The notes under the pieces: generated by a model
Told to the model about the DNA's origin: nothing
What the model saw: the letters and a program-made list of their open reading frames with translations, nothing else
Databases searched by the model: none
Source of the DNA: a virus
Length of the DNA stretch: 64,000 nucleotides
Virus record (IMG/VR): IMGVR_UViG_3300027881_000007
Span: 1-64,000 of that record
Strand: one strand, 5' to 3'
Program-made: the position numbers and the translations under genes
Shown: positions 32,541 through 48,543 of the stretch, piece after piece
How positions within the stretch are numbered: position 1 is the stretch's first letter
Layout: the number at the start of each line of letters is the position of its first letter

Positions 32541-32542
32541 AC

Positions 32543-33202
32543 TTATACAATCTCCTCACACGGAGGTATAGGAATCACCTCTCTAGCAGCCACAAAGTCG
32601 AAATACAGTTCAATTACAAAGGCCTCATAACAACTTTGTAAGACTTCAAATGGTTGAGAGATAAGAGTTGTAGTATCATAGACTGAAGTGTCCTCATCAA
32701 TCTTCAACTTCAAGTACACCCATATCAACTTTGATAAATCAGTACTTAGAGCATCTAGTGAGGCATACAAAGTTATTGACGCAGTTGAATCAACTAGAAC
32801 TACTGAGGTTGAATCAACCAAATTAACTCTAGTTGGGTCAATGCGATATGCCAGTAGAGTATTTAGTAGGGTAAAATCATCTGGTTGGAGATGAAATAGA
32901 TTAAATGCATTAGTGCTGTCACATACTTCATACACCTTGGCGGAAGCATATACCGTTATTCTCTCCCTTACCATAGCTGGCCACTTAGACTTACTCTCTA
33001 TATCTTGGAAAAGATATTCATACTCAGTAAATGGATATGATTCATCGAACAGGAGTTGAATGAATGATTTTGGTTTTAGAAAGAGAGTGGGAATTTCAAC
33101 AGGATAAGGTATCTTATCTTTATTGAGATTCCTGTAAACGACTGCCCTACTAAACCAATATTGTAATTCATTTACTAAACTTGTGGAAAATGGTAACGTC
33201 AT
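32543..33202 (-). CDS. hypothetical protein, probably structural
   Basis: Long ORF translationally coupled to the baseplate-like gene; repeated DST motifs. Confidence 0.6.
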   Translation of the reverse strand: MTLPFSTSLVNELQYWFSRAVVYRNLNKDKIPYPVEIPTLFLKPKSFIQLLFDESYPFTEYEYLFQDIESKSKWPAMVRERITVYASAKVYEVCDSTNAFNLFHLQPDDFTLLNTLLAYRIDPTRVNLVDSTSVVLVDSTASITLYASLDALSTDLSKLIWVYLKLKIDEDTSVYDTTTLISQPFEVLQSCYEAFVIELYFDFVAAREVIPIPPCEEIV

Positions 33203-33891
33203 TAAGACTCCTCTTTCGAAATGAAAGAACTAAGTACCATGTAAATATGTCCTTCAAACTCGTGTGGATCCATACCTAATTCATCAGCAAAGGCATGTAC
33301 TTGTTTATCCGAAGGATTTGGATTGGCTTTAAAGAATTTTATAATTTTTGCATGAATGTCTCCACTATCTTCTTGTTCATGCACTGGTTCAGCAGCCTCA
33401 GCTTCAGCTTTAGTTGTCTGTACAGTTCCAGACGGATGATTTGGGGGAGAATAGACTGAATAAAGTTTCAAGTCATCTTCATCCGAGATATTAATAACAT
33501 TGTGTTTAGTTCCAGCTGGTATAACAAATGCTGAACCATCTTCTATTAATATCTCCTTTCCATTTAGGACTACTTTACCTTTTCCTGCTTCAATCCTAAT
33601 AAATTGATCAACATTGGAATGATTCTCTTCTCCAATATCTTCACTAGGCCGAATGCTCATCAATACTAACTGAGATTTTGTAGCAGTATAAAGAACCTTA
33701 CGAAAATTCTTATTTGCTATCGTTTCCTTTTCAATATTAATAAGAAACCCATCAGGAGCTTTATAAATATCAACTTCGTGAGCAGCTTGCTCATACATCT
33801 CACGGATGCATTTTTTCTTAATGGGTCACCACCTCATCCCGGGCGGACAATCTTTCTTCTCAGATAAGTGTTTCAGGTAACTGTCGATCAT
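33202..33891 (-). CDS. cupin-domain protein with N-terminal CPPGMRW-U-PIKKKC module; predicted selenoprotein (TGA at 33826-33828)
   Basis: AGGAGG RBS before ATG 33891, in frame with the cupin ORF (NFRKVLYT, EENH..VDQF, IPAGTKHNV, YSPPNH); hairpin after the TGA. Confidence 0.75.
33793..33811 (-). promoter_or_regulatory. putative bacterial SECIS hairpin
   Basis: ATGCATC-CGTGA-GATGTAT; loop starts 21 nt after the in-frame TGA, G at loop position 2. Confidence 0.6.
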
Positions 33892-33897
33892 TTTAAA

Positions 33898-35037
33898 CTA
33901 CCTCCTAAACTTAATATTTGGTAGAGGGTACCATGGATGCATTGGTGTATATACTTTAGGTTCAACATCAACTTCAGTTTCACTCTCCTCTTCCGTTTCA
34001 ACATCAACTATGTGCTGTTTGGCATCTCTTTCAGTTGTAAATTCAATTGAAAGTTTGCTCAGTACATGGGTAATAGGATTTGATAGTGTAGTATTATCTG
34101 AACCTGCAAATAGCAACCCTACAGCATTGTTATCCATATCCAATACTAGGGAGCCAGAGTCTCCACCATCACTCATGGGACCAGACATTATTTGGTCTTC
34201 AAATAGAGCAATAGGTCCACCATAATTAACCTGTGCTGTTACGTGGAGTTGAATGACTACACCTTGAGTATATCCAGTTGTTCGACCACTTTTCTGAATT
34301 GGTGTTCCAAGAGTTGGTTCAGATACTCCCTTGACATAACCAATTTCAAGTATCATCAACTCCATATCTTCAAACTTAATTGGGGTAGCTATGGCACAAT
34401 CGACTAGATTAGGATCACCCGGTTCAGCTTCCTTAGATAGAGAGAACTTATGACTTGAACCAAGTAGTTGTCCTATCTTATTGAGTACCTTCTCAATAGA
34501 ACCAGCTATAGGACATATAGGTACTGTATCACCAGAGAAGGAGATGGGCACATAGTCGAGTAGACTAGCTACGGTGTCTTCTTCACGGCCACCATCAATT
34601 CTCCCTGGTTGAAATATGGCATCACCTATGGCAGCTTCATTCGAGTTAGCGAACACGTGATTATTACTCAATAGGAGAATATCATCTCCACGCTTAACAA
34701 ACGCACCAAGAGTTCCTGCAGTTATATCTTTATGTCCCATAGATACACCAGCGGGATATGGCCTCCACCAATCACTTCGTTCTTTTAACGCAACAAATTC
34801 TCCTGTCTCAGTAACATCTGTCTTCGTGCCATCACCTACTGTCTGTGGTATCACATCCTTAGCCGGCAACTTCTCAATAGGGAGTTTCTGCTTAACAGAC
34901 ACAACAACACAAACCTCACTTGTAGCTACTCCGGCCACAGTTTTTAAACCAACTCCCACCGCCACCACGTTGGCCTTCTTAAGAAGATCTTTCTTACTCT
35001 CATTCACAACGTTTCTGACAATCTCTATGGTACTCAT
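33898..35037 (-). CDS. trypsin-like serine protease (Nal1-like)
   Basis: AGTLG, LSNNHV (His), DCAIA (Asp), KSGRTTG and GDSGS (Ser); start placed at MSTIE after AAGGAG. Confidence 0.9.
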   Translation of the reverse strand: MSTIEIVRNVVNESKKDLLKKANVVAVGVGLKTVAGVATSEVCVVVSVKQKLPIEKLPAKDVIPQTVGDGTKTDVTETGEFVALKERSDWWRPYPAGVSMGHKDITAGTLGAFVKRGDDILLLSNNHVFANSNEAAIGDAIFQPGRIDGGREEDTVASLLDYVPISFSGDTVPICPIAGSIEKVLNKIGQLLGSSHKFSLSKEAEPGDPNLVDCAIATPIKFEDMELMILEIGYVKGVSEPTLGTPIQKSGRTTGYTQGVVIQLHVTAQVNYGGPIALFEDQIMSGPMSDGGDSGSLVLDMDNNAVGLLFAGSDNTTLSNPITHVLSKLSIEFTTERDAKQHIVDVETEEESETEVDVEPKVYTPMHPWYPLPNIKFRR

Positions 35038-35073
35038 GAGATACTCCTTAATTTCAAAGTAGTCTGTCATACA

Positions 35074-35517
35074 TTAAAGAAGAATTTTCGACCAACGAGA
35101 TTCCTCAAATCTTTGCTCAAGGGACGCCTTCGCTTCATCACCATCTGGCGACTTAAGCTCCCCATCCATAATAAGAGACATAAGTTCATGCAGGTCAGCC
35201 TCTCCGATGTTCTTGATAAAGTCCTCTTTAGCAGATTCTGGTATTTTCTCCGATTCTTTGACTACCTCACTAATATATATCCTAAGACTTTCTGTCTTCA
35301 ACTCCTCCACCTTTTTATCATTATAAGCCCTACTTGAATCATCTTCATATTCTGAATCTTCTCCAGTCATAGGATCTTTCTCAGGGGCACCAGCAGGTTC
35401 CCCAGGTGGAAGAGGTTCTTCTACTTCATCGGGATCAACCATCTCAACCATTTCCTGCTCATGTAGTATTTGTTGTTTCTCATCACCGTACAATTCCTCT
35501 AACTTTTTTGTTGGCAT
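35074..35517 (-). CDS. acidic hypothetical protein, possibly head scaffold/internal
   Basis: E-rich, several LxE sites; AGGAGG RBS. Confidence 0.6.
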   Translation of the reverse strand: MPTKKLEELYGDEKQQILHEQEMVEMVDPDEVEEPLPPGEPAGAPEKDPMTGEDSEYEDDSSRAYNDKKVEELKTESLRIYISEVVKESEKIPESAKEDFIKNIGEADLHELMSLIMDGELKSPDGDEAKASLEQRFEESRWSKILL

Positions 35518-35526
35518 ATCATCCTC

Positions 35527-35874
35527 CTAGAACCGAGTCATTTTTAGTTTTGCTTGAAGTTTAGAAATCTTATTAGTCAATTTTGCTTTACATGCCTCAG
35601 GATTCTTATCCTTTCCACACATACCCTTTCCTTTATTAAGAGCACCCATCTTTGCTTTAATCGCTTGTGCTTTGAACCTCTTTAGACACTTGGTCTTATC
35701 CAGACCAGTATAGTCTTTACACGTCCTAGCAGCCTTATCAAAAATAGCCTTATAGGACTTAGCTGCTAAACTAAGGGCCATTGGCACAACAAAGAGAGCA
35801 GTACTCACACCCGCTTCATCAAATACCTTATCTTCTTGTATAAATTGCAAATAGGCATCTAACCTCTCACTCAT
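35527..35874 (-). CDS. putative capsid-internal protein with 4-Cys basic helical domain
   Basis: Leader LDAYLQFIQE; hydrophobic segment; paralogue of 42361-42867. Confidence 0.65.
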   Translation of the reverse strand: MSERLDAYLQFIQEDKVFDEAGVSTALFVVPMALSLAAKSYKAIFDKAARTCKDYTGLDKTKCLKRFKAQAIKAKMGALNKGKGMCGKDKNPEACKAKLTNKISKLQAKLKMTRF

Positions 35875-35883
35875 ATCATCCTC

Positions 35884-36474
35884 CTACGTAGACATCTTAA
35901 GTATGACAGCGAATAAACCCACAACACCAAGTAGTGCTATGGCTGTAAGTCCAACCTGTGCTAAAGGTGGAAAGAGAGTAGCTAAAAGAATAAATGCACC
36001 TATACCAAAACCATATGCAAAAGCTCCTTCACCAGCCATTGCCTGTTCACCAAGTTTAGCTTTTAATCGTTTCCTAACGCGGCCAAACTTAAGCAGCACT
36101 TCTTTAGTTTTCACATCTGGTTTATCTGAATGACTTGCGCCAAGAGCAATCATTGATGAGAGATATGAGAGAGCACTATCTGGAACATCTGGATATTTTG
36201 TTTCTAGTTGGTTCATAGACATCATATAGGACTGATCAAAACCTTTAGAGGATGCCCTTCTAGCAACCTTTTTAAACTTTTTAGATGAGATAACAGGTAC
36301 AAGGGTAATCGCTTTTTCTATGGTTTTAGCATCTCCTCTCACTATACCCTTCTTCATACCAAGCATTATCTTATCAAGTCTACCTTGTGTCATCTTCCTG
36401 ACAAAGGATGCTACATTCTCGGTGATAACATCAGACTCTTGTAACTCATTCATATACTTATCAATTATCCTCAT
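35884..36474 (-). CDS. putative capsid-internal protein with C-terminal TM hairpin
   Basis: Leader IDKYMNELQE; two hydrophobic C-terminal helices. Confidence 0.65.
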   Translation of the reverse strand: MRIIDKYMNELQESDVITENVASFVRKMTQGRLDKIMLGMKKGIVRGDAKTIEKAITLVPVISSKKFKKVARRASSKGFDQSYMMSMNQLETKYPDVPDSALSYLSSMIALGASHSDKPDVKTKEVLLKFGRVRKRLKAKLGEQAMAGEGAFAYGFGIGAFILLATLFPPLAQVGLTAIALLGVVGLFAVILKMST

Positions 36475-36512
36475 ATCCCTCTCCTAAATTAATCGAACTA
36501 TCCCTATTTTTA

Positions 36513-36523
36513 ATTTGTTCCAC
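36513..36523 (-). promoter_or_regulatory. putative late promoter motif GTGGAACAAAT
   Basis: Recurrent motif. Confidence 0.5.
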
Positions 36524-36536
36524 ATATTTGAAGTCA

Positions 36537-36926
36537 TCACTGGTCATATTTTGAGACAATCCAACACAGCCTCATCTGTAAAGTAATAGTAGTTAATGGT
36601 ACATTCCCATGCACATCTACAGGGTCCATAGCAGGGGCAAGTTCAGTCTTCCTTAACTCCTCTTCAATTTCCATAAACTCCATATATGCAGCAAGGTCCC
36701 CAACCTCAGGATCATCACCAAGTCTATATTTGTCTCCCTCTTGATGTCCTCTAGGTATAGCAAATATAATCTCGTGATACTCTTCCCTTGTAGGTAACAT
36801 CATATACTCTTCTAGAATAAACTCAGGATAATCACGATGTTCCTTCATCCACTTTTTCTTCTCCTCCAGTGACAGACCCTCCGGCATTTCCTCCAGTGAG
36901 GGCAAACTCCCCGTAAGATCGGTCAT
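36537..36926 (-). CDS. hypothetical protein
   Basis: AAGGAG RBS, co-oriented with neighbours. Confidence 0.65.
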   Translation of the reverse strand: MTDLTGSLPSLEEMPEGLSLEEKKKWMKEHRDYPEFILEEYMMLPTREEYHEIIFAIPRGHQEGDKYRLGDDPEVGDLAAYMEFMEIEEELRKTELAPAMDPVDVHGNVPLTTITLQMRLCWIVSKYDQ

Positions 36927-36939
36927 CTCGCTTCTCCTT

Positions 36940-37515
36940 CTATTCTACCTTCTCAGATATCACAGTCCATCCTTCTTTCTGTGTTTCATCATCAATATCA
37001 TCTGGTTCTACTGAAAACCAATCTCTTTTGTTAAACTTCAAACCTATCTGGTCTTGCCATGCCATAGCTATAAGAGAGGAGCACACAATACTATTCGACC
37101 TATTCAAGGTAGCCGTAAACCAATTAGTCCTAAACAGGTTGTCCCAAAACTGCCAAAATATAGTCACCAGACTAAACTTCTCTCCCAACTTACTATTTAG
37201 TCGTTCGGCAATACCTGCAGCATCTTCATCAGACAAATCATCTTTCCTCACAATCCTGTATGCTCTCTTGGCCATATACTTCTTGACCTGAAGCATATCT
37301 CGTTTGACAACTTTCATCTGTGCCTCTATCAACATATTAGGTGCTATCATACAAGACACGTGAGTAAACCTAGCAGGGTCTCCTCCTCCCCCATATTGAA
37401 TAAACTTAAGAAAGAAATTAGTAAACCAATTCTTCTTGGCACAAGTCATTATTATATCACCCGCCTTTAACTTGGGTACTTCAATCCCTGTAGATGACGA
37501 TTGTGATAAACCCAT
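36940..37515 (-). CDS. permuted papain-like (YiiX/YaeF-type NlpC/P60) enzyme
   Basis: LKAGDII, FTHV (His) before IEA and VCSSLI (Cys), final PDDI. Confidence 0.8.
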   Translation of the reverse strand: MGLSQSSSTGIEVPKLKAGDIIMTCAKKNWFTNFFLKFIQYGGGGDPARFTHVSCMIAPNMLIEAQMKVVKRDMLQVKKYMAKRAYRIVRKDDLSDEDAAGIAERLNSKLGEKFSLVTIFWQFWDNLFRTNWFTATLNRSNSIVCSSLIAMAWQDQIGLKFNKRDWFSVEPDDIDDETQKEGWTVISEKVE

Positions 37516-37516
37516 A

Positions 37517-37981
37517 TCATCCTCCTATAAATGTTACCTTCTCCTCTAGGTCTGGTTTATATAAACAGAAAGGTATCAACCAACGAAGATTATTTATCAT
37601 AGTAAACTTATTTAGTTCCCTTGTAGATATAATTGATACTCTCTCATCTGTTACAGTCTTAGCCTCATAGAAAGTATCATGCGGCAACTCAATAGAAAGG
37701 AAATACACCCTCCAACCACTACCTTGAATCGTAACCTTATGACGCCATACATATGGATTGGTTTCAATACCTACCTCTTCTTTAAACTCCCTAGATATAG
37801 CCTCATGCATACTTTCACCATTTTCAATATGTCCACCGGGGCCATTTAATGCACCCTTCTGCCAAGCAGGTCTTTGCTTCCTTACTAATATAACTCTCTC
37901 ACCATCTTCTCTAAAAGCAAAACCTACCACATATTCAGTCTTTCCAAATAGCTTTCCTTTCCTCTCAGATGTATTGAGCAT
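37517..37981 (-). CDS. Nudix hydrolase
   Basis: Nudix box GGHIENGESMHEAISREFKEEVG; start set at MLNTSE (GGAGG RBS). Confidence 0.92.
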   Translation of the reverse strand: MLNTSERKGKLFGKTEYVVGFAFREDGERVILVRKQRPAWQKGALNGPGGHIENGESMHEAISREFKEEVGIETNPYVWRHKVTIQGSGWRVYFLSIELPHDTFYEAKTVTDERVSIISTRELNKFTMINNLRWLIPFCLYKPDLEEKVTFIGG

Positions 37982-38162
37982 GAAAATAGTATCCCTCCAT
38001 TTTAAAGTTAGGTGGATAGTCAAACCATCTGGGTTTTATCCATACTTGGTGTCTCTTACAGTTTTGATCCCAACAGTAACGACTAGGTACCAATTCTAAC
38101 TCCCCTTTACTGTTTTGTACGGGAACGTATCCATGACCCCAATAATGCCTGTGCCACCACAT
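37965..38162 (-). CDS. small hypothetical protein
   Basis: AGGAGG RBS before MWWHRHYW. Confidence 0.55.
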   Translation of the reverse strand: MWWHRHYWGHGYVPVQNSKGELELVPSRYCWDQNCKRHQVWIKPRWFDYPPNFKMEGYYFHAQYI

Positions 38163-38164
38163 AG

Positions 38165-38533
38165 TTACCCTCCTTGTGCTCGCCTCTTCACCCATTCACC
38201 TATAGTTATATAATCGCCCTTCGACTTAGGTCCTACAGTCGCCTTCCTAGTATCTGGGTCCACACCACATGCCTCCATTACATCAGCGGGACAACAACTG
38301 TATCCAGCCTCCCTTAATACCCAATGCATAACTTGAAATTTATCAGCATCAACCATCTCATATTGCTGCATCAATAGACCTGTATATCCGCCAAACTGAT
38401 AAGACTCTCCCAACGCATGATATATCATCCTAGCTGTAATCCTAGCTGCCAACCGATTTATGCAGTTACTCTTCAATGGCCACTGAGGATCAATAGGAAA
38501 CTTAAACTTAGGATACATCAGTCTTCTCAACAT
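38165..38533 (-). CDS. hypothetical protein
   Basis: Tiled ORF with RBS. Confidence 0.65.
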   Translation of the reverse strand: MLRRLMYPKFKFPIDPQWPLKSNCINRLAARITARMIYHALGESYQFGGYTGLLMQQYEMVDADKFQVMHWVLREAGYSCCPADVMEACGVDPDTRKATVGPKSKGDYITIGEWVKRRAQGG

Positions 38534-38534
38534 A

Positions 38535-39497
38535 TCACCTTCCTACAAGAGTGTTATAATAGCAACCAACCTTACAAGACGCCAGAACTGCACACTCCTT
38601 ACACTTCTCAGATAACTCCATAATAGAGTTGGTCTTCATACGAGATCCCCTTTGAATCATATTAGTGATCTCATCCATCGTCTTAACATCACCATTATCC
38701 TTCAATATAGAACCAACTTTTATCCTCGTCTGATTGCAGTAATATAGTTCAAAATCATAGTCGATCAAACCCATATGTGTATCACCACAACAAGTTATCT
38801 TCGCAAAGTGAAGACCATCTAAATCGTGAAAACTTATCACATCCAACATATCCTGAGTATAGAAGCACATAGGCAAAACGTGATCATAACTGTGCGATAT
38901 ATTCCTCTTCCATAAGTTAGGTCCTATAGTAGTAACTACGTCAATCCACGATTCTCTATACTGGTTTAAGATATTGTCGTCAAACAAATCAACCTGTGTA
39001 TCCGGAGACAATATAATATGTACATATGGACCCAACTTCACACACTGATTTACCTTCTCAATCATCTCATCTATACCATTTAAGGGTACAACAAAGTGAA
39101 GGGACATACGACGTATAAGATCACCATACTCAGGGAACACATTGGGGTCAAATACAAAACCATTTACTGTAAACTGTAACTTGCCTTGAAAGTGATTCTT
39201 GACGACCACTCCATGTTTCGTGATCTCTTTCATCCTTGTACCATTGGTAAATATATTAACCATTCCATAGTGCTTACAGGACTCTATAACTACATCTATA
39301 AACCTAGGGTGAAGTGTAGGTTCCCCACCCATAATCTTCAACTCTTCTTGTTTTAAATGACCAGAGTTAACCTGCATAAACTTAATCAATACATCGGCAT
39401 CCATAGACCCCGTCATCCTGGCATCTGCATTGAAGCAGTGTGGACACGATGCATTACACAACTCTGTCAGAACTATCCTGTGGGCTAGTTGAATCAT
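38535..39497 (-). CDS. radical SAM protein with SPASM-like C-terminus
   Basis: CNASCPHC (CxxxCxxC), GGEPTLHP, FTNG; C-terminal CKECAVLASCKVGC. Confidence 0.92.
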   Translation of the reverse strand: MIQLAHRIVLTELCNASCPHCFNADARMTGSMDADVLIKFMQVNSGHLKQEELKIMGGEPTLHPRFIDVVIESCKHYGMVNIFTNGTRMKEITKHGVVVKNHFQGKLQFTVNGFVFDPNVFPEYGDLIRRMSLHFVVPLNGIDEMIEKVNQCVKLGPYVHIILSPDTQVDLFDDNILNQYRESWIDVVTTIGPNLWKRNISHSYDHVLPMCFYTQDMLDVISFHDLDGLHFAKITCCGDTHMGLIDYDFELYYCNQTRIKVGSILKDNGDVKTMDEITNMIQRGSRMKTNSIMELSEKCKECAVLASCKVGCYYNTLVGR

Positions 39498-39877
39498 GTT
39501 GTAACCTTACTCTTCTTAGATGGTACCCCATCATATTCATCTAACTTCTCCAAACCCTCTAATATAAGCAAATGTCCTAGATCACGTCCGTCGAGTAATA
39601 TAACATCGGCAACATAGCGATCATACATACCTGCATAATAGGTTCTCAATATAACCTCTTTACCTTCGATGAGGTCTTTGACAAATACAGATGCCTGATT
39701 CCCGTGTGCTTTCTCTGCTTCATTGACAGGTCTAAAGGTCTCAGGCGTATCAACTATGTGAAGTCTAAACCTACCCTTAAACCTAATCCTGAAACCAAGG
39801 TCCACATCAGCGTCATATGTATCACCATCCACAACCCTTGTAATCAACGCCTTATATTCCCATCTAAAATCTTTCAT
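39494..39877 (-). CDS. thermonuclease (SNase-like)
   Basis: RVVDGDT, RL..VDTPE and YDRYVA. Confidence 0.9.
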   Translation of the reverse strand: MKDFRWEYKALITRVVDGDTYDADVDLGFRIRFKGRFRLHIVDTPETFRPVNEAEKAHGNQASVFVKDLIEGKEVILRTYYAGMYDRYVADVILLDGRDLGHLLILEGLEKLDEYDGVPSKKSKVTT

Positions 39878-39966
39878 TCACTCTCCTCCATCAATGACAT
39901 TTACAACATATAAACTTACACTTCCCTTTCGGCTTTAGTATAACGTCAGGCATATATATGAAATTC

Positions 39967-40134
39967 TCAATTTTCACATACATTGAGTTTGCCCTCCGGT
40001 ATTCGCATAAATTCATTCTTGTAGAATTGGAAGTGTTCATTACACTCAGGACAATGAACACATATAGTAGCACCTCTATCGGTTTCCCAATAAAAGGTAG
40101 TCTTACACTCAAGGCATGTAAAGGTACATATCAT
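39967..40134 (-). CDS. 55-aa zinc-ribbon protein (not in ORF track)
   Basis: ATGA overlap with the upstream stop; MICTFTCLEC...HCPEC...VCEN*. Confidence 0.6.
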   Translation of the reverse strand: MICTFTCLECKTTFYWETDRGATICVHCPECNEHFQFYKNEFMRIPEGKLNVCEN

Positions 40135-40322
40135 ATTTCACTCATCCACTTCTTGATCTCTTCCTCGCTATATCCTTCAGGAAACGAACAATATTTAGAT
40201 GCCCAAGGAGCCATCTTTGCTATTAACTCCTTATCCTTCTTAGACAGGATTATCATTATAGGTTGTTCATTTGAATCAAATACTTTGTTCCCAACTTTCA
40301 CTTCCATATTCAGTTGCTCCAT
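40131..40322 (-). CDS. small hypothetical protein
   Basis: Tiled ORF (VKVGNKVFDSNEQPIMIIL). Confidence 0.6.
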   Translation of the reverse strand: MEQLNMEVKVGNKVFDSNEQPIMIILSKKDKELIAKMAPWASKYCSFPEGYSEEEIKKWMSEI

Positions 40323-40324
40323 AA

Positions 40325-40341
40325 ATAGACAGACAGTAGGT
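40325..40341. repeat. 17-bp perfect inverted repeat arm, 3' of gene 40348-40647
   Basis: atagacagacagtaggt is the exact reverse complement of 40674-40690. Confidence 0.85.
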
Positions 40342-40347
40342 TAAAGT

Positions 40348-40647
40348 TTACGAACCGAGTATCTTCTCTATCGTCTTACCCTCATCATTACACAAGTAGG
40401 CATATGTATCGAAGGCAACAGTAAACTCCTCATTATCTGTTCTCCTACAACACAGAACAACGTATTTATACGGTTCAGTTGTAGGTCCATGTATCCTATC
40501 CAACAGAGTTATGTCATAGTCAAGTTTATCTGGGGCAGCAATTTCTAGACTAGTTATCTCCTTGATCTTAGATACACTGACCTTCCTTATTTCATCCAAT
40601 ATCCACCATTCCTGATTGTCTCGCTCTCTCCTTACCTTTAGTATCAT
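40348..40647 (-). CDS. hypothetical protein with C-terminal AYLCNDEGKTIE motif
   Basis: GGAGG RBS before MILKV. Confidence 0.75.
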   Translation of the reverse strand: MILKVRRERDNQEWWILDEIRKVSVSKIKEITSLEIAAPDKLDYDITLLDRIHGPTTEPYKYVVLCCRRTDNEEFTVAFDTYAYLCNDEGKTIEKILGS

Positions 40648-40673
40648 GTCTACCTCCTGCATGTCTGATGTCT

Positions 40674-40690
40674 ACCTACTGTCTGTCTAT
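40674..40690. repeat. 17-bp perfect inverted repeat arm, 5' of gene 40348-40647
   Basis: acctactgtctgtctat. Confidence 0.85.
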
Positions 40691-40698
40691 ATCAATAG

Positions 40699-41307
40699 TT
40701 AATGGTTATAATCAGCATTTAGTTCTTTAGAATACATATCAGATTCTGATAATGGTACATCTGGCATATACCTATCCATTAAGTATTCATATCTCGTCCA
40801 AAATTCTCCACCATGCTTATTCCTCTTACCTATACAGGTATCAATGTGAGCTATCTCATGAAGTATCAACCTCTTTATACTCTTTGCCTTAGGGCCTACG
40901 TTTATAACCTTTCTCTCCAACCAACAAAACCCCTCAGAGGAGTCCTTATTATACCACTCTAGAGTCCACCCCCTATGACCAAGGTCTGAGATAACTCTAT
41001 CGAACAACATCCTACCTCTCCACTTATTCACCTCTCTAACTAGTTCGTCACATTGATCATATATAGAGTCCCACACTTTATGAGTTATACTATCCCCTAG
41101 TAACCTATATATCAACCAATGTCCCAACTCATGTAATAGTATAGGTACACGAGTCCATTCACTAGTCGCTAAATCCTTCCTCACAAAGATAGTATTTGAC
41201 GCTGGGTGATATGCTGCCTTTTCATATGGAATCCACTTAGGCAGGCGTTTAACATACAGAATTTTCAGCTTCTTCACTCGTCCATCTGCTCCTATCGCTT
41301 GCCCCAT
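40699..41307 (-). CDS. double HEXXH zincin-like metalloprotein
   Basis: LLHELGH and ILHEIAH...HGGEF (SprT-like). Confidence 0.7.
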   Translation of the reverse strand: MGQAIGADGRVKKLKILYVKRLPKWIPYEKAAYHPASNTIFVRKDLATSEWTRVPILLHELGHWLIYRLLGDSITHKVWDSIYDQCDELVREVNKWRGRMLFDRVISDLGHRGWTLEWYNKDSSEGFCWLERKVINVGPKAKSIKRLILHEIAHIDTCIGKRNKHGGEFWTRYEYLMDRYMPDVPLSESDMYSKELNADYNH

Positions 41308-41474
41308 AGTTTCCGTTGTCCTTTCATGCCCACATAGGCAAAGTTATCATTCAAGAAAGAGTGTATCTTAAAGGCAATCCTAGGAGGTAAATTAACAATA
41401 CGCCTACCAGATGGGGTATATAGCACACCATTTGAAGAGCAACCACATAGACCGTAGAATAGTTTCAGTTTCAT
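41292..41474 (-). CDS. small hypothetical protein
   Basis: GGAGG RBS, coupled to neighbours. Confidence 0.5.
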   Translation of the reverse strand: MKLKLFYGLCGCSSNGVLYTPSGRRIVNLPPRIAFKIHSFLNDNFAYVGMKGQRKLWGKR

Positions 41475-41998
41475 ATCTCATTAACCTCCTTCTGCACAAG
41501 ACAATGATCAGTCTTTTCAATAATCTGAAATTCTCGAGTCCCCTCCCATGTTAAATCAGAAGAAGGTATATCTTCTAGATAATAGTAACAGCATGCAGGC
41601 GACCATTTCAGTACACTTGGGTCTGTCTTAACCTTACATATAATATGAATCAAACCAAACTTATTATCTGCTGTTTTAACATTCCTTGCCCACCTAAATT
41701 CAAAACCAGGTTTAACCGTCCTCACATTAGTCATATAGAGCATAGGTTGCTTACCAACAATAGGTATATCGCCTTCCTCTTTGGCCCTTGCAATAAAGGT
41801 TGATAAAGTAAGTCCCTCACGCTCAATCAATGGAACATATTGAGGTCTAGTAGCATGATACAAAAACATATGGGATTCAGTTTCAAGTATACGCTTACAC
41901 AGAGTTGCTTGCCTAAGGTCATAGTACTCCAACCACCTAACGACCTCATCTCCAGAGTCTTCCTTTAGGGTATATAGATAATCATCAACAGCCTTCAT
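41471..41998 (-). CDS. ADP-ribosyltransferase-fold protein with capsid-targeting-like leader
   Basis: LYHAT...IEREGL...LYMT...IP pattern of the ART/Tpt1 fold; leader VDDYLYTLKE. Confidence 0.6.
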   Translation of the reverse strand: MKAVDDYLYTLKEDSGDEVVRWLEYYDLRQATLCKRILETESHMFLYHATRPQYVPLIEREGLTLSTFIARAKEEGDIPIVGKQPMLYMTNVRTVKPGFEFRWARNVKTADNKFGLIHIICKVKTDPSVLKWSPACCYYYLEDIPSSDLTWEGTREFQIIEKTDHCLVQKEVNEI

Positions 41999-42163
41999 GT
42001 ATCATCCTCCTACTTCCTCAGTTCTATCGCCAGAGAATCACTCCCAAATATGGCCACAGTCTCGTGTTACCAAAAACACAAAAAGCCAAATTGTAAAAGT
42101 TCCATCTTGCTTTTTTAACCAAGTCTTCTTGCTGACAATGAATACACATGATTTTTACTCCTC

Positions 42164-42349
42164 CTATTTAGGTGGCCAAAAAAACTTCCTCAACCAATCA
42201 AGGAACATAACAATAGTAATGATACCACATATAAGGGATCCCCAAGCCATCACTTCTGCTGATAAAGGAGGAGGTCCTATCTTTCCAATAGGCATATTCG
42301 GATATAGTACACCTTCCCAAAACCTTGTTAGGTGGTCTATAAAGTTCAT
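42164..42349 (-). CDS. small membrane protein
   Basis: AGGAGG RBS, one TM segment. Confidence 0.55.
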   Translation of the reverse strand: MNFIDHLTRFWEGVLYPNMPIGKIGPPPLSAEVMAWGSLICGIITIVMFLDWLRKFFWPPK

Positions 42350-42360
42350 ATATCATCCTC

Positions 42361-42867
42361 CTATACAGTTACCTTTTTCAACTTTCCTCCAACCTTACCT
42401 ATATACTTATTAACCTTGGCCTTGCACTTAGTGGGATCCTTCGACTTATCACATGCTTTGATTGCTTGTTTAAGATCCAACAATTGTTGACTCAATGCAT
42501 TAATTCTATACTGTTTCATACATGCCGTTTTTTCTTCACCTGACCTATTAGCACATGCCTTAGACGCTGGACTATATTTAGCCTTATATAGTTTATATGA
42601 AAGATAGACCAACAACGCTGCTACAGCTATACCACCTATAGCGGTACCATATTTCCCAAAAAATGAAACGGATGATTTAGCATCAGGATATATCTTCCTT
42701 GCATTATCTTCCATTTGCTTAACCCATTCCCAGTCTACCTTAGGGTCAAGGTCTACATCCCCGGGTTTCATTGTTACATCTATTTCATCATAGTCCCACT
42801 CTATCTTTTCATCTAACATTAAGTACATCACATATTGGTCTATAATTAGTGATTCATATGACGGCAT
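42361..42867 (-). CDS. TM plus 4-Cys basic helical protein, paralogue of 35527-35874
   Basis: ASKAC..SGEEKTAC...KACDKSKDPTKCKAK aligns with AARTC..TGLDKTKC...GMCGKDKNPEACKAK. Confidence 0.7.
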   Translation of the reverse strand: MPSYESLIIDQYVMYLMLDEKIEWDYDEIDVTMKPGDVDLDPKVDWEWVKQMEDNARKIYPDAKSSVSFFGKYGTAIGGIAVAALLVYLSYKLYKAKYSPASKACANRSGEEKTACMKQYRINALSQQLLDLKQAIKACDKSKDPTKCKAKVNKYIGKVGGKLKKVTV

Positions 42868-42876
42868 ATAATCCTC

Positions 42877-43119
42877 CTATACTAGTTGCTCCATAGCGTC
42901 AATAATACCTCGTATATTAGTGCGACTATTAAGACAATCACATGGGGGTCTGCCAACACAATCACAAAAGGTTACCACCTGACAGTAAGGACACTTATAC
43001 CATACAGTCAACCTTTTATTACACCTTATACAGTTGACCTCATAATCCCTATCACCTAACTCATTGTCAATCATACGGACATTGAAAAGATGTTCATCCT
43101 GAGTATCAATCATATACAT
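42877..43119 (-). CDS. 8-Cys zinc-finger protein, triplet copy 3
   Basis: CIRC..CPYC..FCDC..CDC. Confidence 0.7.
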   Translation of the reverse strand: MYMIDTQDEHLFNVRMIDNELGDRDYEVNCIRCNKRLTVWYKCPYCQVVTFCDCVGRPPCDCLNSRTNIRGIIDAMEQLV

Positions 43120-43381
43120 GACCCCTACTAAGTATATCTTCTTTCAACTGTTTAGCTCCACACATTATAACCATATAATTCATACGTTCAATAAGGCATC
43201 TAATTTCTTTAGTCGTGGTCATACACCTACATACATATCCTGTGCAGTCACCACAGAAATATACCTTCTTACATGACGGACAATTAAAGCGATCCCCTGT
43301 ACGCATACCACAGTTGATGCAATATACAATCTCATCAATATCATCTATGATAATTAATTTTGCAGTTTTGCCTTTGATCAT
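43106..43381 (-). CDS. 8-Cys zinc-finger protein, triplet copy 2
   Basis: CINC..CPSC..FCGDC..CRC. Confidence 0.7.
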   Translation of the reverse strand: MIKGKTAKLIIIDDIDEIVYCINCGMRTGDRFNCPSCKKVYFCGDCTGYVCRCMTTTKEIRCLIERMNYMVIMCGAKQLKEDILSRGHVYD

Positions 43382-43390
43382 ATACGACCC

Positions 43391-43606
43391 CTACAGATTC
43401 AGTTGCTTCATCTCCTCAATAGTCTCTCTCAATATATTAATGAGAGTATCAGAACATCCACACAAAGGTTCTGCATGACAATCACAGAAATATACACTCC
43501 CACATTGAGGACAAGTATACCAATCCTCTACTGGTTCATTACACCTCATACAGTATAGTACAGTATCATCTATAATGGTTAAGTCTGGAGTTTCGCCCTT
43601 GATCAT
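43391..43606 (-). CDS. 8-Cys zinc-finger protein, triplet copy 1
   Basis: CMRC..CPQC..FCDC..CGC. Confidence 0.7.
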   Translation of the reverse strand: MIKGETPDLTIIDDTVLYCMRCNEPVEDWYTCPQCGSVYFCDCHAEPLCGCSDTLINILRETIEEMKQLNL

Positions 43607-43615
43607 ATATGACTC

Positions 43616-44419
43616 CTATATAGTTGGTGCTTTCTCTGGCCACTGCCCCATAGTGGGTTGTCCGGGCGGTATAACTTCTTCCTCTTGGGGTTTTGTATTT
43701 GAGGTTATATTTGTATTTTGTTCCTGTGGGGTATTTATTTGACCTATATGTTCAGTGTGTTCAGGGTCTTTTATGTAGGGTTTGTCAGAATCGAAGGGAG
43801 ACTGTTCCTTTTTGGACCTTTTGGAATTGAAGTATTCCTTTAGTTCAGGCGTGAGGTGGTGTAAACGGTTATTTGCGGATAGCATATCGAGCATATGGAT
43901 GAAGTGTACATATGGGTGGTAATCACGGAAGTTAAATTCGTCGGCATTCTTGACATCTGTAGACCATCGTCCTTGATGGAAGCGTAAACAGTCTTCTAGA
44001 ATGTCGTACATATCATCGGAATATAGTTGGAGGATGATTTCTCGGTTTTTCCTGAGCTTTTGTGCTGCGATCAAGTCGTGAGCATTTGCAGTATGAGATC
44101 GTTCTGTTGGATTTTCTCCATATTTCCAAGCGTCGTGCAACGCAATTGACAGGCATATGATGTCTGCATCAACTGATTTCGGTTCTGCTCCATACATCCT
44201 CATTACTTTAGTTGCTGCGTATAACATTTCATATGTATGCTCGATAACTGTCGGAACTCGCCCATCATCCTTATTGTGGTATTTCCCAGTTGACGAAGTT
44301 GGGCGTTGCCATATCGAATATATCTTAGTCAGCATTGCAGTCCACAACTTGAATCCATCCTCTGTCATGTTCTCTTTCAATAGATCATTCATCTCAGCTT
44401 CATAGTTCATGGTTGTCAT
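43616..44419 (-). CDS. HD-domain phosphohydrolase
   Basis: SSTGKYH, EHT, LHDAWKYG, FHQGRW and LDMLS. Confidence 0.85.
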   Translation of the reverse strand: MTTMNYEAEMNDLLKENMTEDGFKLWTAMLTKIYSIWQRPTSSTGKYHNKDDGRVPTVIEHTYEMLYAATKVMRMYGAEPKSVDADIICLSIALHDAWKYGENPTERSHTANAHDLIAAQKLRKNREIILQLYSDDMYDILEDCLRFHQGRWSTDVKNADEFNFRDYHPYVHFIHMLDMLSANNRLHHLTPELKEYFNSKRSKKEQSPFDSDKPYIKDPEHTEHIGQINTPQEQNTNITSNTKPQEEEVIPPGQPTMGQWPEKAPTI

Positions 44420-44491
44420 CCTCCCTTTCAGAGTTTCAAATTAATTCTATGTTTGCCTATGGCAACAGGTATTCAGAGTCTCATATCGCGT

Positions 44492-44522
44492 TATATACGC
44501 CGCTATATACACCGCTATACAT
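44492..44522. repeat. short 12-bp tandem repeat in an intergenic region
   Basis: TATATACGCCGC TATATACACCGC TATACAT. Confidence 0.55.
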
Positions 44523-44552
44523 AAACAACTGTTTACAAACATAAATTATTGT

Positions 44553-44876
44553 TTATGTCATCTTGTATGGATCAACTATAAGCCATTGCTCATACTCCCA
44601 CCGCCTCATATTAACTAATACATCACAATTGTCGTCGGTTCTAATAAAGATCCATCTTCGGGTGAAACCAGTTATGACCCCACGCTTACCTCTAACCTCT
44701 ACCTTCACATTAATGCTCAGTCTCTTATTGACCATGAAGTAGAAGTATGCGACCATGCTATCAATAAAGTTCTTGAGAGCTAACATGACTCCAAATGCAA
44801 TAAGAGTTTGAAATAGGAACCACCATAGTTGCGGTTTAACTGCTGTCATTATTTCCATCATCTCCTTCTGTCCCAT
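44553..44876 (-). CDS. small membrane protein resembling the MscS TM plus beta domain
   Basis: Hydrophobic N-half, then VEVRGKRGVITGF...IRTDD. Confidence 0.5.
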   Translation of the reverse strand: MGQKEMMEIMTAVKPQLWWFLFQTLIAFGVMLALKNFIDSMVAYFYFMVNKRLSINVKVEVRGKRGVITGFTRRWIFIRTDDNCDVLVNMRRWEYEQWLIVDPYKMT

Positions 44877-45258
44877 AACATATCTCCTTCTCTCTTAAGT
44901 ATTCTTTTACTATCTGTATAACTCGACTTCGTATGTCATTGAGCATTTTCTTAGTTCTTAGATGTTTTGGTTGATAAAGAGTCTCGTCGTCATAGAATTC
45001 CTGACCAATTCGTGAGTAAATCTCTTTTAAATGCTCACAAGACTCTGAACAGTTTACATATATTAGGCACTGTGAGCAAATTAGGTCATTTATCGGATCT
45101 GATAGGTTTTTCACTGTTGAGTCGATTTTGACCTGCTCACGTGGATCCTGCGTAAAAATTTTCTTTCTAATCATGGTGCATCCAACCGCCGCCTTTTCTA
45201 ACTTTTTATCTGGATGAGATTTTTTTATGGATCGGTCATACCCAATCTTGTATAGCAC
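44836..45258 (-). CDS. CxxCx5Cx3C family protein
   Basis: CSQCLIYVNCSESC. Confidence 0.7.
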   Translation of the reverse strand: MLYKIGYDRSIKKSHPDKKLEKAAVGCTMIRKKIFTQDPREQVKIDSTVKNLSDPINDLICSQCLIYVNCSESCEHLKEIYSRIGQEFYDDETLYQPKHLRTKKMLNDIRSRVIQIVKEYLREKEICYGTEGDDGNNDSS

Positions 45259-45476
45259 TAATTTTTTCCATCATGTAAGAGAATGATCCAGATGAAGGGG
45301 ATTAAGATAATAAGGAGCGTCATACAAACAATTAACTTAACGGGTTCCTTTAAAGCTCCTCTTCTCTCCTCTTGTCGCTCATACTTCCTCTTATCCTCAC
45401 AGGATATAGAACAAGCAGATATAATTAAGCAAGCGGGACAAGGATCCCTCAGTCGGGTAAACATCCACTTTTTCAT
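45258..45476 (-). CDS. CxxCx5Cx3C family protein with C-terminal TM
   Basis: CPACLIISACSISC and a hydrophobic tail. Confidence 0.7.
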   Translation of the reverse strand: MKKWMFTRLRDPCPACLIISACSISCEDKRKYERQEERRGALKEPVKLIVCMTLLIILIPFIWIILLHDGKN

Positions 45477-45710
45477 ACTCAAGATCCCACGAATTTTTTA
45501 GTATCCAATTTTTCACCCTATATAGGAGTTTCAACTCCATCTTCATCCACCTTAGAGTCCATATAGAAAATCAAACCCCCACATATAATCATATGGATAA
45601 AGAAAGCATTCCATAGACCCATAACAGGTAGACTAATGAAAATAGCAATTGCCATATTCAATACCACCAGGGTTATCCAAGGGTAGAACCACATTCAGTC
45701 TTCCCCCTCC

Positions 45711-46145
45711 CTACCTTATACCATTAATTATGTCATAATTCTTCTTCACAAAAGCAAGGGCCTTCTTTTTACCCTTCTCCTCCAACTTCCTCATTAATAC
45801 CTTAACTTTCTCATCCTTGTCTTTCAACCCTTGCATATTTTTATCTAATAGTTCATTATACTTTTTCTTCTTCTCAGGATCTGTGGTCTTAGTGATCACT
45901 TTCTTAAGGGCACTAATGGCACATCTCTGGTGACATAGGATTCCTAACTTGCCACTCTTTGACATATACTGAACATATAGCATCCCCGGAAGGGTACCTA
46001 ATAGGAATCCTGTTGCTGTCTTGGTACTCAACTTTAGTAGTTTATCACACCTTCTATTACATGGTATGACCTCTTTCATAAATTCTTTGCCATAATATGC
46101 TTCATGTATGTATAACTGTTCTAAATAGGTATCCATTATTTCCAT
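45711..46145 (-). CDS. putative capsid-internal protein (TM plus basic helix)
   Basis: GGAGGAG RBS before MEIMDTYLEQLYIHE leader. Confidence 0.6.
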   Translation of the reverse strand: MEIMDTYLEQLYIHEAYYGKEFMKEVIPCNRRCDKLLKLSTKTATGFLLGTLPGMLYVQYMSKSGKLGILCHQRCAISALKKVITKTTDPEKKKKYNELLDKNMQGLKDKDEKVKVLMRKLEEKGKKKALAFVKKNYDIINGIR

Positions 46146-46146
46146 C

Positions 46147-46335
46147 TTAACTCCTCCCCCTCCCCCTGTCCTCAATCCAATAAGGGGAATCCTCATCTAT
46201 ATTCAATAGTTTACCACAATGGTTACAGTATGCAGGGTACCCATCCATTACATAGGAAAATGTGTGCATACTCATACCTTTACATAGGGAGCAGACAAAT
46301 TTATCCAACCTCTCATAGTCTACAGCTTCTTTCAA
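46147..46335 (-). CDS. small zinc-ribbon protein
   Basis: CSLC...CNHC; GGAGG RBS with GTG start. Confidence 0.55.
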   Translation of the reverse strand: MKEAVDYERLDKFVCSLCKGMSMHTFSYVMDGYPAYCNHCGKLLNIDEDSPYWIEDRGRGRS

Positions 46336-46365
46336 TTTTTCACCTCCCTCTCCTTAGAACAATCC

Positions 46366-46821
46366 TTAAATGGTCATCTCTATATTCATTACTGTATCAG
46401 GATGCAATATCATATCGTCTTTGTTTATATGCCAATAGTCTTTAGTAGTACCACCAAACTTACGGGACATACCATCCCAATCTGCAATCATCTGTTTAAC
46501 ATACTTCATTGGCATAGGTATGGGGATTATCTCGTCTTTCCTAGTTACACTGACCCAATAATTCCAGTGGTGTTTATTTCTCTTTTGATGCCTTAACCAA
46601 CCCAACTGAAAGTTCATATTGTGTTCGTCAGACTGTTTGTACTCCTCGGTGCGATTTGTCTCATTAAAAAACCTTGCATATGGAATAAACTCTGACGGCA
46701 GAAACTTTGATAAATCATGGGTTATGCCATGGATGAATTGCCTAGACTTGACACACTCTATAAATACATTCCATTTATGCTCACACACATACCAAAAGTA
46801 TCTCCAGTACATACTACTCAA
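46366..46821 (-). CDS. DUF5662-like HD-related protein
   Basis: HKWNV, HDLSKF, HQKRNKHH and MIADW. Confidence 0.8.
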   Translation of the reverse strand: MSSMYWRYFWYVCEHKWNVFIECVKSRQFIHGITHDLSKFLPSEFIPYARFFNETNRTEEYKQSDEHNMNFQLGWLRHQKRNKHHWNYWVSVTRKDEIIPIPMPMKYVKQMIADWDGMSRKFGGTTKDYWHINKDDMILHPDTVMNIEMTI

Positions 46822-46956
46822 CCTCTTGTTCTCTTATATCAGAACAATCCTCACAGGTATATTCCATCTCCTCTCCTACAAGGAAACATACCACAGGTTC
46901 ATTACTTATCATAGGGTCTATCTGTTTATTACAGTCAGAACAGTTCACATTAACTC

Positions 46957-47220
46957 CTATATATGCAGGAACAATGATGCCATAGCTCCACCAAATAATA
47001 TTACCCAAAATATCAACTTCATAGCTTCCACTGTATCAAATAGGTTCTTCCTAATCACACCACACCTACTATTATATAAAATACATTGCTCACACACTTC
47101 AGTACATATAGTTTCAATGAGGCATCTCTCACAGGGGTTTCTTAGTATCTTAACCCTGTTGAGTCCTTCTATCAACTTGTCATCCCATATCCATTGACGG
47201 TCATCCATATTGTCATCCAT
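46957..47220 (-). CDS. CxxCx5Cx3C family protein with C-terminal TM
   Basis: CERCLIETICTEVC. Confidence 0.7.
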   Translation of the reverse strand: MDDNMDDRQWIWDDKLIEGLNRVKILRNPCERCLIETICTEVCEQCILYNSRCGVIRKNLFDTVEAMKLIFWVILFGGAMASLFLHI

Positions 47221-47262
47221 CCCAACTCCTACCTTGAAAACTCAGAGTCCAAGTCCGAATTT

Positions 47263-47673
47263 TCATTGAGGTCCATACTTGGGTAATGTGATCCAGGGTT
47301 TTTTGTATTCAGTCTTGCTAAAACTAACCTTCTCTGAATAATAACCATTTGATTCACCTAACCATCTAATGGTCACAGAACCTATAATGGTTGACAACTT
47401 ATAGAATGTCCATGTAAAACTCTCACTACCATACTCCACAGAGTGGTCGTGCTTCTCATTACTAACAACCTCTTCGGCCAACAGTATGGGGTTACCAATT
47501 AAATCCTTTAAATCTCCAACAACATCCACGATGTTGACGGTTTCACATCAGTCTTTGGCATGATACATCTTATATATATCACCTTCTTCGGTGGTAAATG
47601 TCATCTCCGTACTGCCTACATTACCATTGATCTCCTTTATGATCTCATTTTTCATTTCTTCGAACCTTGCCAC
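47263..47673 (-). CDS. conserved phage protein (YHxxD-U-CE); predicted selenoprotein (TGA at 47548-47550)
   Basis: GGAGG RBS plus GTG at 47673, in frame through [12 protein letters not shown] into [16 protein letters not shown]...[18 protein letters not shown]. Confidence 0.8.
47516..47540 (-). promoter_or_regulatory. putative bacterial SECIS hairpin
   Basis: CCGT-CAACATC-GTG-GATGTTG-TTGG; loop starts 18 nt after the TGA and begins with G. Confidence 0.65.
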
Positions 47674-47963
47674 TTGTCGTCCCTCCGCCTCAATTCAAAT
47701 TGATACTCATTACCGTCCCTGAACTCCAGCCTGTGGATACACAACTCCCACCATAGTAGTTTAATGGACTTCCATTTTAGTTTGATTGTCATCTTCAACT
47801 CCTTGAACTCTTCCATCAACTTAATGTATTCGTCTGCAGCTATCTTATCTATAATATAAGTAGAACTCATGAGGCTGTGTCTTTCTAATCTCTGTATGAT
47901 ATTGTTCTTCATCCTTTCGATGACTCTATCTATTGCATCATTCCATCCTTTGTAATAGTCCAT
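47652..47963 (-). CDS. hypothetical protein
   Basis: Tiled ORF starting MDYYKGWNDAI. Confidence 0.6.
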   Translation of the reverse strand: MDYYKGWNDAIDRVIERMKNNIIQRLERHSLMSSTYIIDKIAADEYIKLMEEFKELKMTIKLKWKSIKLLWWELCIHRLEFRDGNEYQFELRRRDDKWQGSKK

Positions 47964-47969
47964 AATCCG

Positions 47970-48287: not shown

Positions 48288-48543
48288 CTTCTTCTTTAAA
48301 CTCCTTTAATATAGTCCAGAACTTCTCTTCTATTCTCTTTTTAGATACATTTAGGTCAGCTATATCTACTAACCATTTCCACATACGACCATAGACCGCG
48401 TCGAAACTAGGGCAACCTATGGTGCAAGTCGATACCACGAGACATTCCTTACAGAGGTTTTCGTCTATTAGGGGTCTGGTTGTCTCTGTGGCATCTTGAT
48501 ATAATGCCTCGACCCTCACTTCGAGGTCATGTATGTTGGACAT
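48262..48543 (-). CDS. CxxCx5Cx3C family protein
   Basis: CKECLVVSTCTIGC. Confidence 0.7.
   Translation of the reverse strand: MSNIHDLEVRVEALYQDATETTRPLIDENLCKECLVVSTCTIGCPSFDAVYGRMWKWLVDIADLNVSKKRIEEKFWTILKEFKEEDDSNHEEN

Follow-up and report, generated by a model that had tools for sequence, protein, structure and literature searches.

How can two unrelated genes of one phage each continue through an in-frame TGA in a genome that commonly uses TGA as a stop? This question is raised by a 64,000-nucleotide (nt) stretch of viral DNA, positions 1 to 64,000 of the IMG/VR virus record IMGVR_UViG_3300027881_000007 (the window), in which a gene for a DUF7448 protein (gene B) and a gene for a cupin protein (gene A) are each interrupted by a single TGA followed at a short distance by a small hairpin. 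The window represents the first 64 kb of a linear record of 113,344 nt with a G+C content of 39.7% and a CheckV completeness of 36%. Our analysis suggests that both UGAs are most probably selenocysteine (Sec) codons, which would be decoded through selenocysteine insertion sequence (SECIS) hairpins of the bacterial type by the machinery of the host. A preliminary description of the window had proposed such a phage selenoproteome read by the SelB of the host, and the core of that proposal is supported by the alignment of the TGAs with Cys, by the conservation of the TGAs in relatives, and by the presence of hairpins at the expected distance.

An in-frame TGA at the conserved cysteine pair of DUF7448

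The first of the two genes to be considered, gene B, and its in-frame TGA are located as follows.

47263..47673, minus strand: candidate selenoprotein gene B (DUF7448), 136 codons, GTG start at 47673, Sec at codon 42 within the motif YHAKD-U-CE
47548..47550, minus strand: in-frame TGA B, putative Sec codon, aligned with the first Cys of QDCCE

When read through the TGA, gene B encodes a complete DUF7448 domain (PF24240, E value 3e-24, 85.8 bits against a cut-off of 27; PHROG 2650) that covers residues 5-112 and spans the TGA. The Cys pair of the QDCCE motif is nearly invariant in this family, with CC found in 136 of the 142 phage and metagenome DUF7448 loci that were fetched, and TGA B occupies the position of the first Cys. 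The eight closest relatives, which are 75-82% identical and share a characteristic WITLPKYGP tail, all appear in databases as truncated proteins with a start at codon 43, and seven distinct N-terminal peptides of 41 residues, encoded on contigs that also bear C-terminal pieces, begin with MA[QRKN]FEEMKNE, end in ...YHxxD, and terminate directly before the position of TGA B; the stop codon of this 75-82% clade is deduced from these fragment ends only. With the eight truncated relatives and the seven fragments taken together, the stop position appears to be conserved and both halves of the protein appear to be under selection. The shared beginning of the fragments also points to GTG 47673 as the true start of gene B. 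Furthermore, an independent contig from a separate study is identical to the record across TGA B, while the metagenome scan yielded no member of the close clade, and its clade-specific C-terminus was unmatched in the viral scans.

This observation is further strengthened by more distant copies of the gene from phages and metagenome-assembled genomes (MAGs). Specifically, all five of these copies (L087, L112, L117, L164, and L193) carry TGA at the exact codon of site B, and in all five the residues from this stop to the next potential start codon still match the family consensus C-E-x-V-x-I. Such conservation would not otherwise be expected and therefore argues that the stretch after the stop is translated. 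Neither synteny nor other common genes were found between the phage of this record and the other contigs bearing Sec forms of DUF7448.

The replacement of one member of a vicinal Cys-Cys pair by Sec, giving Sec-Cys, suggests a redox or metal site in DUF7448. An AlphaFold model of the domain is all-beta (predicted local distance difference test score of 73), and a Foldseek comparison with the PDB gave no match at an E value of 0.001 or below. Structural matches from VIA-align, with a polymorphic-toxin immunity protein (8owu_E, Z 5.8) and an uncharacterised Neisseria protein (Z 5.2), were rejected as lying below the level that would indicate more than a common beta arrangement.

A co-varying hairpin restricted to the putative Sec forms of DUF7448

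The TGA of gene B is followed by a hairpin with a G-first triloop.

47516..47540, minus strand: hairpin B, CAACATC (47536-47530), GTG (47529-47527), GATGTTG (47526-47520), -8.6 kcal/mol

The core stem begins 11 nt after the TGA, the loop starts 18 nt after it, and the stem is extended by 3 bp at its lower end. The hairpin was compared with a model of bacterial SECIS (bSECIS) elements that asks for an apical loop of 3-9 nt, an upper stem of 4-16 bp, a G in the first two loop positions, a location 16-37 nt after the UGA, and a minimum free energy (MFE) of -7.5 kcal/mol or lower (PMC13188914). In hairpin B, with its GUG loop, its stem of 7+3 bp, its distance of 18 nt, and its energy of -8.6 kcal/mol, all four features of the model are present. 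A G-first triloop (GUG, GUU, GUU, GGA) starting 17-18 nt after the UGA is also present in four of the five distant Sec forms, so that, together with the gene studied here, five of the six Sec forms carry it.

A stricter hairpin definition was also applied, namely a perfect stem of at least 7 bp with no more than one G-U pair, a loop of 3-8 nt with G in loop position 1 or 2, and a location 16-37 nt downstream. By this definition, a hairpin stands at the place of site B in three of four Sec forms and in none of 139 Cys forms, of which 75 use TGT and 64 use TGC (Fisher test, 8e-6); the fourth Sec form falls outside the definition solely through extra G-U pairs. In a five-sequence alignment of Sec forms, 87% of the cells of hairpin B are paired and 6 of the 11 pairs show compensatory change, values that no shuffle matched (0/500), and no slid register of the alignment came near the observed pairing.

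The apical loop of hairpin B is the GTG at 47529-47527, from which gene callers begin the shortened DUF7448 open reading frame (ORF), and the same start is called in the eight close relatives. Since the called start codon and the loop of the putative SECIS hairpin coincide, the relatives are uniformly mis-annotated.

A cupin gene with a putative N-terminal W-U-P module

The second gene lies 14 kb away on the same strand and encodes an unrelated protein.

33202..33891, minus strand: candidate selenoprotein gene A, 229 codons, Sec at codon 22, N-terminal CPPGMRW-U-PIKKKC, Cupin_2, and a C-terminal NPNPSD...HEFE domain
33826..33828, minus strand: in-frame TGA A, putative Sec codon, aligned with Cys in P0260, P0264, and L244/L245
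33793..33811, minus strand: hairpin A, ATGCATC (33811-33805), CGTGA (33804-33800), GATGTAT (33799-33793)

The Cupin_2 domain (PF07883, E value 5e-15, 55.4 bits against a cut-off of 27.2) covers residues 78-148, and an AGGAGG sequence at 33906-33901 stands upstream of ATG 33891. Cupin homologs in the databases start near MYEQ, and the N-terminal extension that holds the TGA was present in none of them, which at first made site A doubtful. This assessment was changed by three observations: repeats of the module in a Cys form, further TGA contexts of the module, and a syntenic phage genome with the same gene.

Regarding the first, the 45 N-terminal residues of gene A served as query in an exhaustive search that used no profile, and a short-repeat family, CPxGxxW-x6-C, was recovered. 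The most similar members have Cys directly after Trp, at the U position, in P0260 (...DCPEGQRWCPIQKKCV..., 14/19 identical) and P0264, the latter match being still significant with X at the U position; in phage contigs (L244/L245) this Cys codon is TGT. Regarding the second, the DNA pattern C-P-x-G-x-x-W-TGA-P-x4-C was found in IMG/VR in ten distinct module-bearing Sec-form contexts, including the present one, and the ratio of Sec to Cys forms among the IMG/VR matches is 10 to 2 distinct. Regarding the third, the complete phage genome G002 (locus L257) presents the same architecture of AGGAGG, ATG, MMESYLKFLSEKGKCPPGMRW-TGA-PVRKKCIREM..., and then the cupin, and a comparison of the 32 extension codons with those of gene A gave 16 identical, 9 synonymous, and 7 non-synonymous codons, a substitution pattern of the coding type. 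Taken with these observations, the assignment of site A as selenocysteine is nearly as likely as that of site B.

The Sec of the module is flanked by two Cys (C-x6-U-x5-C), and from its sequence contexts the W-U-P module looks like a portable Sec-containing mini-module. The motif CP[PE]GxxW-TGA-P-x-[KR]-K-[KE]-C was also seen in at least eight other unrelated phage proteins (L246, L247, L249, L251, L258, L267, L269, and L272), at N-terminal, internal, or C-terminal positions. The other end of gene A carries a domain of the pattern FFKxNPNPSDxxVHxFAxxLGxDxHxFExHIY (window 33202-33360), which is C-terminal in gene A and N-terminal in many homologs. In L246, an NPNPSD-type domain is directly followed by the Sec module, and domain order is shuffled within this family.

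The stem of hairpin A begins 14 nt after the TGA (33828-33826), and its apical loop starts 21 nt after it. The apex ATC-CGTGA-GAT is identical in L257 of G002, where two stem pairs differ and pairing is kept. In most of the module Sec contexts, the UGA is likewise followed at 21-28 nt by a short hairpin whose loop contains G (GUU, GGU, GGG, CGGGU, CGUGA).

TGA usage and hairpin frequency across the record

The significance of these hairpins was examined against the background of the whole 113-kb record. TGA proved to be an ordinary stop, as had been stated in the preliminary description with the ends at 730, 20817, and 36537 as examples: these three and gene B itself are among the 44 of 150 long ORFs that end at TGA. 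A scan of all ORFs and of TGA-terminated ORFs across the 113 kb revealed no further convincing in-frame TGA or Sec candidate.

The same description had placed the two loops 21 and 18 nt after the TGA in two unrelated genes, and both coordinates and stems were confirmed. It had also called for a whole-genome scan, and had named hairpins equally common after true stops as evidence against its proposal. Among all 4813 TGA triplets, 1.3% have the strict hairpin downstream, compared with none of the 47 true TGA stops and both in-frame TGAs (2/2). Moreover, the shared core that had been described as CATC-(C)GTG(A)-GATG is exclusive to the two sites: a search of both strands of the 113 kb for CATC-N0-2-GTG-N0-2-GATG gave two occurrences, sites A and B, where 0.22 would be expected. 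The likeness of the two hairpins does not stem from similar peptides, as their 3' arms are read in different codon phases.

A proposed route through the SelB of the host

Based on these observations, we propose that the short in-frame stem-loop just 3' of each UGA, with G(U) in its apical loop, would act as a bacterial-type SECIS element. During infection, the hairpin would be bound by host SelB in complex with Sec-tRNA(Sec) and guanosine triphosphate (GTP), and Sec would thereby reach a ribosome paused at the UGA. The expected products are two full-length phage selenoproteins, a DUF7448 protein with a Sec-Cys pair and a cupin with an N-terminal C-x6-U-x5-C mini-module, and in the absence of selenium or SelB translation would be expected to stop at the UGA. 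The bacterial mechanism appears most likely because the families include Cys/Sec pairs, the UGA is conserved, selection acts across it, and, at site B, a co-varying G-loop hairpin is missing from the Cys forms; it is by such a combination that bacterial selenoproteins are ordinarily recognised (PMC13188914). The parts of this scheme that we infer are the binding of SelB, the identity of the inserted residue as Sec, the host, and any regulatory role. It is plausible that the identical apex of two otherwise unrelated SECIS elements reflects recognition by one SelB, and selenium-dependent expression would follow logically from the scheme.

The dependence on a host is indicated by gene content. 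In agreement with the preliminary description, which had seen no sel genes in the window, none of selA, selB, selD, or a canonical tRNA-Sec was found in the entire 113-kb record, and neither selB nor a canonical, above-threshold tRNA-Sec was found in the complete relative G002; the machinery, including SelB, would therefore have to come from the host. A hint of the kind of host, and no more, is offered by the distant Sec form L164, which is assigned, by the binning of a 9.6-kb contig and thus on weak evidence, to a Desulfobacterales MAG with selB (389 bits) and a selD that has its own in-frame TGA and SECIS. The SECIS of that selD, with a GCUC loop located 21 nt from its UGA, resembles the phage hairpins in no more than the generic features and is thus uninformative on tuning to one SelB.

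Several points weigh against selenocysteine at the two sites. The proposal is based on sequence comparison. The fold z-scores of the 62-nt windows are weak (-1.4 and -0.06), and the bSECIS model, as approximated here, is permissive, passing 5.5% of all TGA triplets and 4 of the 47 true TGA stops; the hairpins alone are for these reasons insufficient. At site A, hairpin A has a predicted energy of -5.0 to -6.1 kcal/mol, which misses the -7.5 limit while the other three bSECIS features are present, and hairpins are short across the whole module family. With only two distinct Cys-form DNAs of the site A module, the comparison of hairpin specificity is confined to site B. In P0252, a single metagenome contig of 849 nt, a deletion of 2 nt is implied, by which the extension would be uncoupled from the cupin. 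At site B, L193 is without the hairpin at +18 and is instead predicted to fold into a larger structure, a stem-loop whose apical loop is placed 28 nt downstream, and the DUF7448 tree (quick method, 123 rows) has too little resolution to group the Sec forms, which are scattered in a way compatible with a single origin. The 1.9-kb contig of L193, which may carry a different SECIS form, is binned as a Heimdallarchaeota MAG, perhaps mis-binned.

Alternative explanations of the interrupted genes

A first alternative is that near-cognate or suppressor tRNAs insert an ordinary amino acid (Trp, Cys, or Arg) at the UGAs, in which case the hairpins would be stimulators of readthrough and not SECIS elements. 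This possibility draws on the weakness of hairpin A, on the lack of Sec machinery genes in the phage, and on G002, where adjacent genes for tRNA-Cys(GCA) and tRNA-Trp(CCA), both near-cognate to UGA, were found (L323:1420-1575). The placement of both UGAs exactly at Cys positions, each with a small G-first apical loop at bSECIS distance, is nevertheless a signature specific to Sec, and one binned Sec form, L164, belongs to a MAG in which selB and a selD with Sec are present. Cys would moreover be obtained more efficiently from a plain TGT or TGC codon than by leaky readthrough. A search of the 113 kb with aragorn found no tRNA and no suppressor tRNA, and Rfam gave no match in the record at gathering thresholds. 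Overall, we consider readthrough by ordinary or suppressor tRNAs improbable.

The second alternative concerns site A alone and holds that the codon is not recoded: ATG 33891 would open an upstream open reading frame (uORF) of 21 codons that ends at the TGA, the cupin would start at ATG 33798, and the hairpin would serve translational coupling or regulation. Many cupin homologs do begin near MYEQ, ATG 33798 lies within the 3' arm of hairpin A and would be sequestered there, the P0252 variant has its extension out of frame, and hairpin A falls short of the MFE limit. These points are set against the behavior of the extension itself: its frame is conserved in G002, also over the 9 codons that follow the TGA, and synonymous changes (9) outnumber non-synonymous ones (7) in the extension as a whole. 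The module also runs across the TGA (W-U-P-x4-C) and has Cys homologs. In addition, nine other phage contexts have TGA at the same position, several of them internal or C-terminal, where a restart offers no explanation, and ATG 33798 is without a good ribosome-binding site. A regulatory uORF is thus an unlikely account of site A, for which selenocysteine remains the preferred assignment.

Pseudogenization, gene splitting, or misassembly is a highly unlikely cause of the interruptions: gene callers do label all of these genes as truncated or split, but many diverged sequences, obtained from separate samples, have their stop at one and the same codon, and both halves, together with the stretch from the stop to the next start, are conserved at the protein level. 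Finally, a reassignment of TGA, genome-wide (code 4 or 25) or in late genes only, has nothing beyond the two in-frame TGAs in its favor and is scarcely credible given two such cases in 113 kb, the frequent use of TGA to end long ORFs, gene B among them, and the TGA stops of genes neighboring the other DUF7448 Sec forms.

Phage context and a tRNA-Sec-shaped RNA

The record is a fragment of an uncultured marine jumbo phage, since window positions 30000-45200 are syntenic, at 70-81% nucleotide identity, with G002, a complete phage genome of 277,131 nt with direct terminal repeats. The runs that hold the record are seawater metagenomes, and marine-sediment runs hold related sequence; in both kinds of run, the two sites are poorly covered by reads of relatives. 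Genes of the region lie nearly all on the minus strand and are tightly packed, and both Sec candidate genes share this orientation. A radical SAM protein is encoded at window 38535-39497 (minus strand; Pfam E value 1e-10). Many small Cys-rich ORFs occur at window 44836-53761, and proteins with Cys motifs are unusually dense between and around the two Sec genes.

A structured RNA was noted at G000 85279-85422 (L161:780-923), 21 kb past the end of the window, with an MFE of -61 kcal/mol and a z-score of -4.3. It has the shape of a tRNA-Sec: acceptor and T stems of 9 and 4 bp, a D stem of 6 bp capped by a 4-nt loop, a second arm whose loop contains CUA, and a long three-way extra domain. Copies with 81% identity occur in the related jumbo phages G002-G004, where the putative Sec cupin is likewise present; in these, the stem of the second arm is wholly different in sequence yet paired, and the CUA is kept. 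There is a slim chance that this RNA is a phage Sec-tRNA-like adaptor, or a decoy, that would steer SerRS, SelA, and SelB to phage mRNAs. The triplet at the anticodon position is CUA and not UCA, aragorn detected no tRNA, and the best Rfam match, to tRNA-Sec, reached 18 bits against a threshold of 47, all of which argues against such a role. Should the adaptor idea be true, the phage would possess a partly autonomous selenocysteine system in which the common SECIS apex serves as an address label.

Implications

Selenocysteine is a costly amino acid that demands a dedicated tRNA, three enzymes and factors, and selenium. Its use in phage genes would tie phage expression to the sel genes and the selenium supply of the host, and would thereby provide a checkable host-range marker, namely that only Sec-using hosts qualify. 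The W-U-P mini-module and DUF7448 would be two additional families of the prokaryotic selenoproteome. Phage genes of this kind are broken up or shortened by standard gene callers, and all database copies encountered were annotated as fragments. Moreover, a pair of SECIS elements with the same apex in one phage presents a natural test of recognition by a single SelB.

Comparison with known systems

The closest counterparts are bacterial genes with an in-ORF SECIS that is read by SelB, of which fdhF of E. coli is the prototype, and the genes described here share with them the UGA at a Cys position, the 3' stem-loop, and the existence of Cys homologs. Both hairpins also conform to bSECIS elements in the small apical loop, with G then U or G first, and in a spacing (18 and 21 nt) within the 16-37 nt range (PMC13188914). 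The need for selA, selB, selC, and selD in trans would likewise be the same. What differs is that the genes reside on a phage genome in which no sel genes were found and that hairpin A is below the energy strength of the model.

Eukaryotic viruses are known to encode selenoproteins, specifically the glutathione-peroxidase homologs of molluscum contagiosum and fowlpox viruses, which are host-captured genes with eukaryotic SECIS elements. "Viral selenoprotein" is used as a term in reviews (PMC6769590). The phage genes resemble these in combining a virus-encoded UGA-Sec protein with the Sec machinery of the host, and are distinguished by an in-ORF element of the bacterial type and by phage-specific families of unassigned role.

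Stop-codon reassignment is a known feature of phages, in which TGA is read as Trp or TAG as Gln in late genes, at many codons of many genes and with suppressor tRNAs. Both situations lead to in-frame stops at which standard gene callers truncate the genes, but here just two codons are affected, each at a Cys position with its own hairpin, in a genome where TGA is still a common stop. Predicted tRNA-Sec genes have been listed for huge phages, as tRNA predictions only and with no selenoprotein gene or SECIS (PMC10747093). The idea of selenoproteins in large phages is the same; in the present case, candidate genes are identified and a canonical tRNA-Sec was not found.

Within its own family, gene B can be compared with the Cys forms of DUF7448 (PF24240; PHROG 2650), which are widespread in Bacillus, Pseudomonas, and other phages and share the domain at 50-60% identity together with a QD-x-C-E motif. 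Unlike gene B, these have TGT or TGC for the first Cys and lack the hairpin at +18. Neither DUF7448 nor the CPxGxxW-U-P module appears in the selenoprotein literature as far as it is searchable, full-text literature searches found no published report of a phage-encoded selenoprotein, and phages are unmentioned in a 2026 review of prokaryotic selenoproteomes and in a tRNA-Sec survey. New in this study are a phage with two putative Sec genes whose SECIS-type hairpins share one apex, a candidate W-U-P module family, and a complete relative in which no selB or canonical tRNA-Sec was found. The preliminary description had regarded the locus as a candidate for an undescribed system. This does not extend to the mechanism, which is most probably the one known from bacteria, and it stands for the phage carrier and the two protein families.

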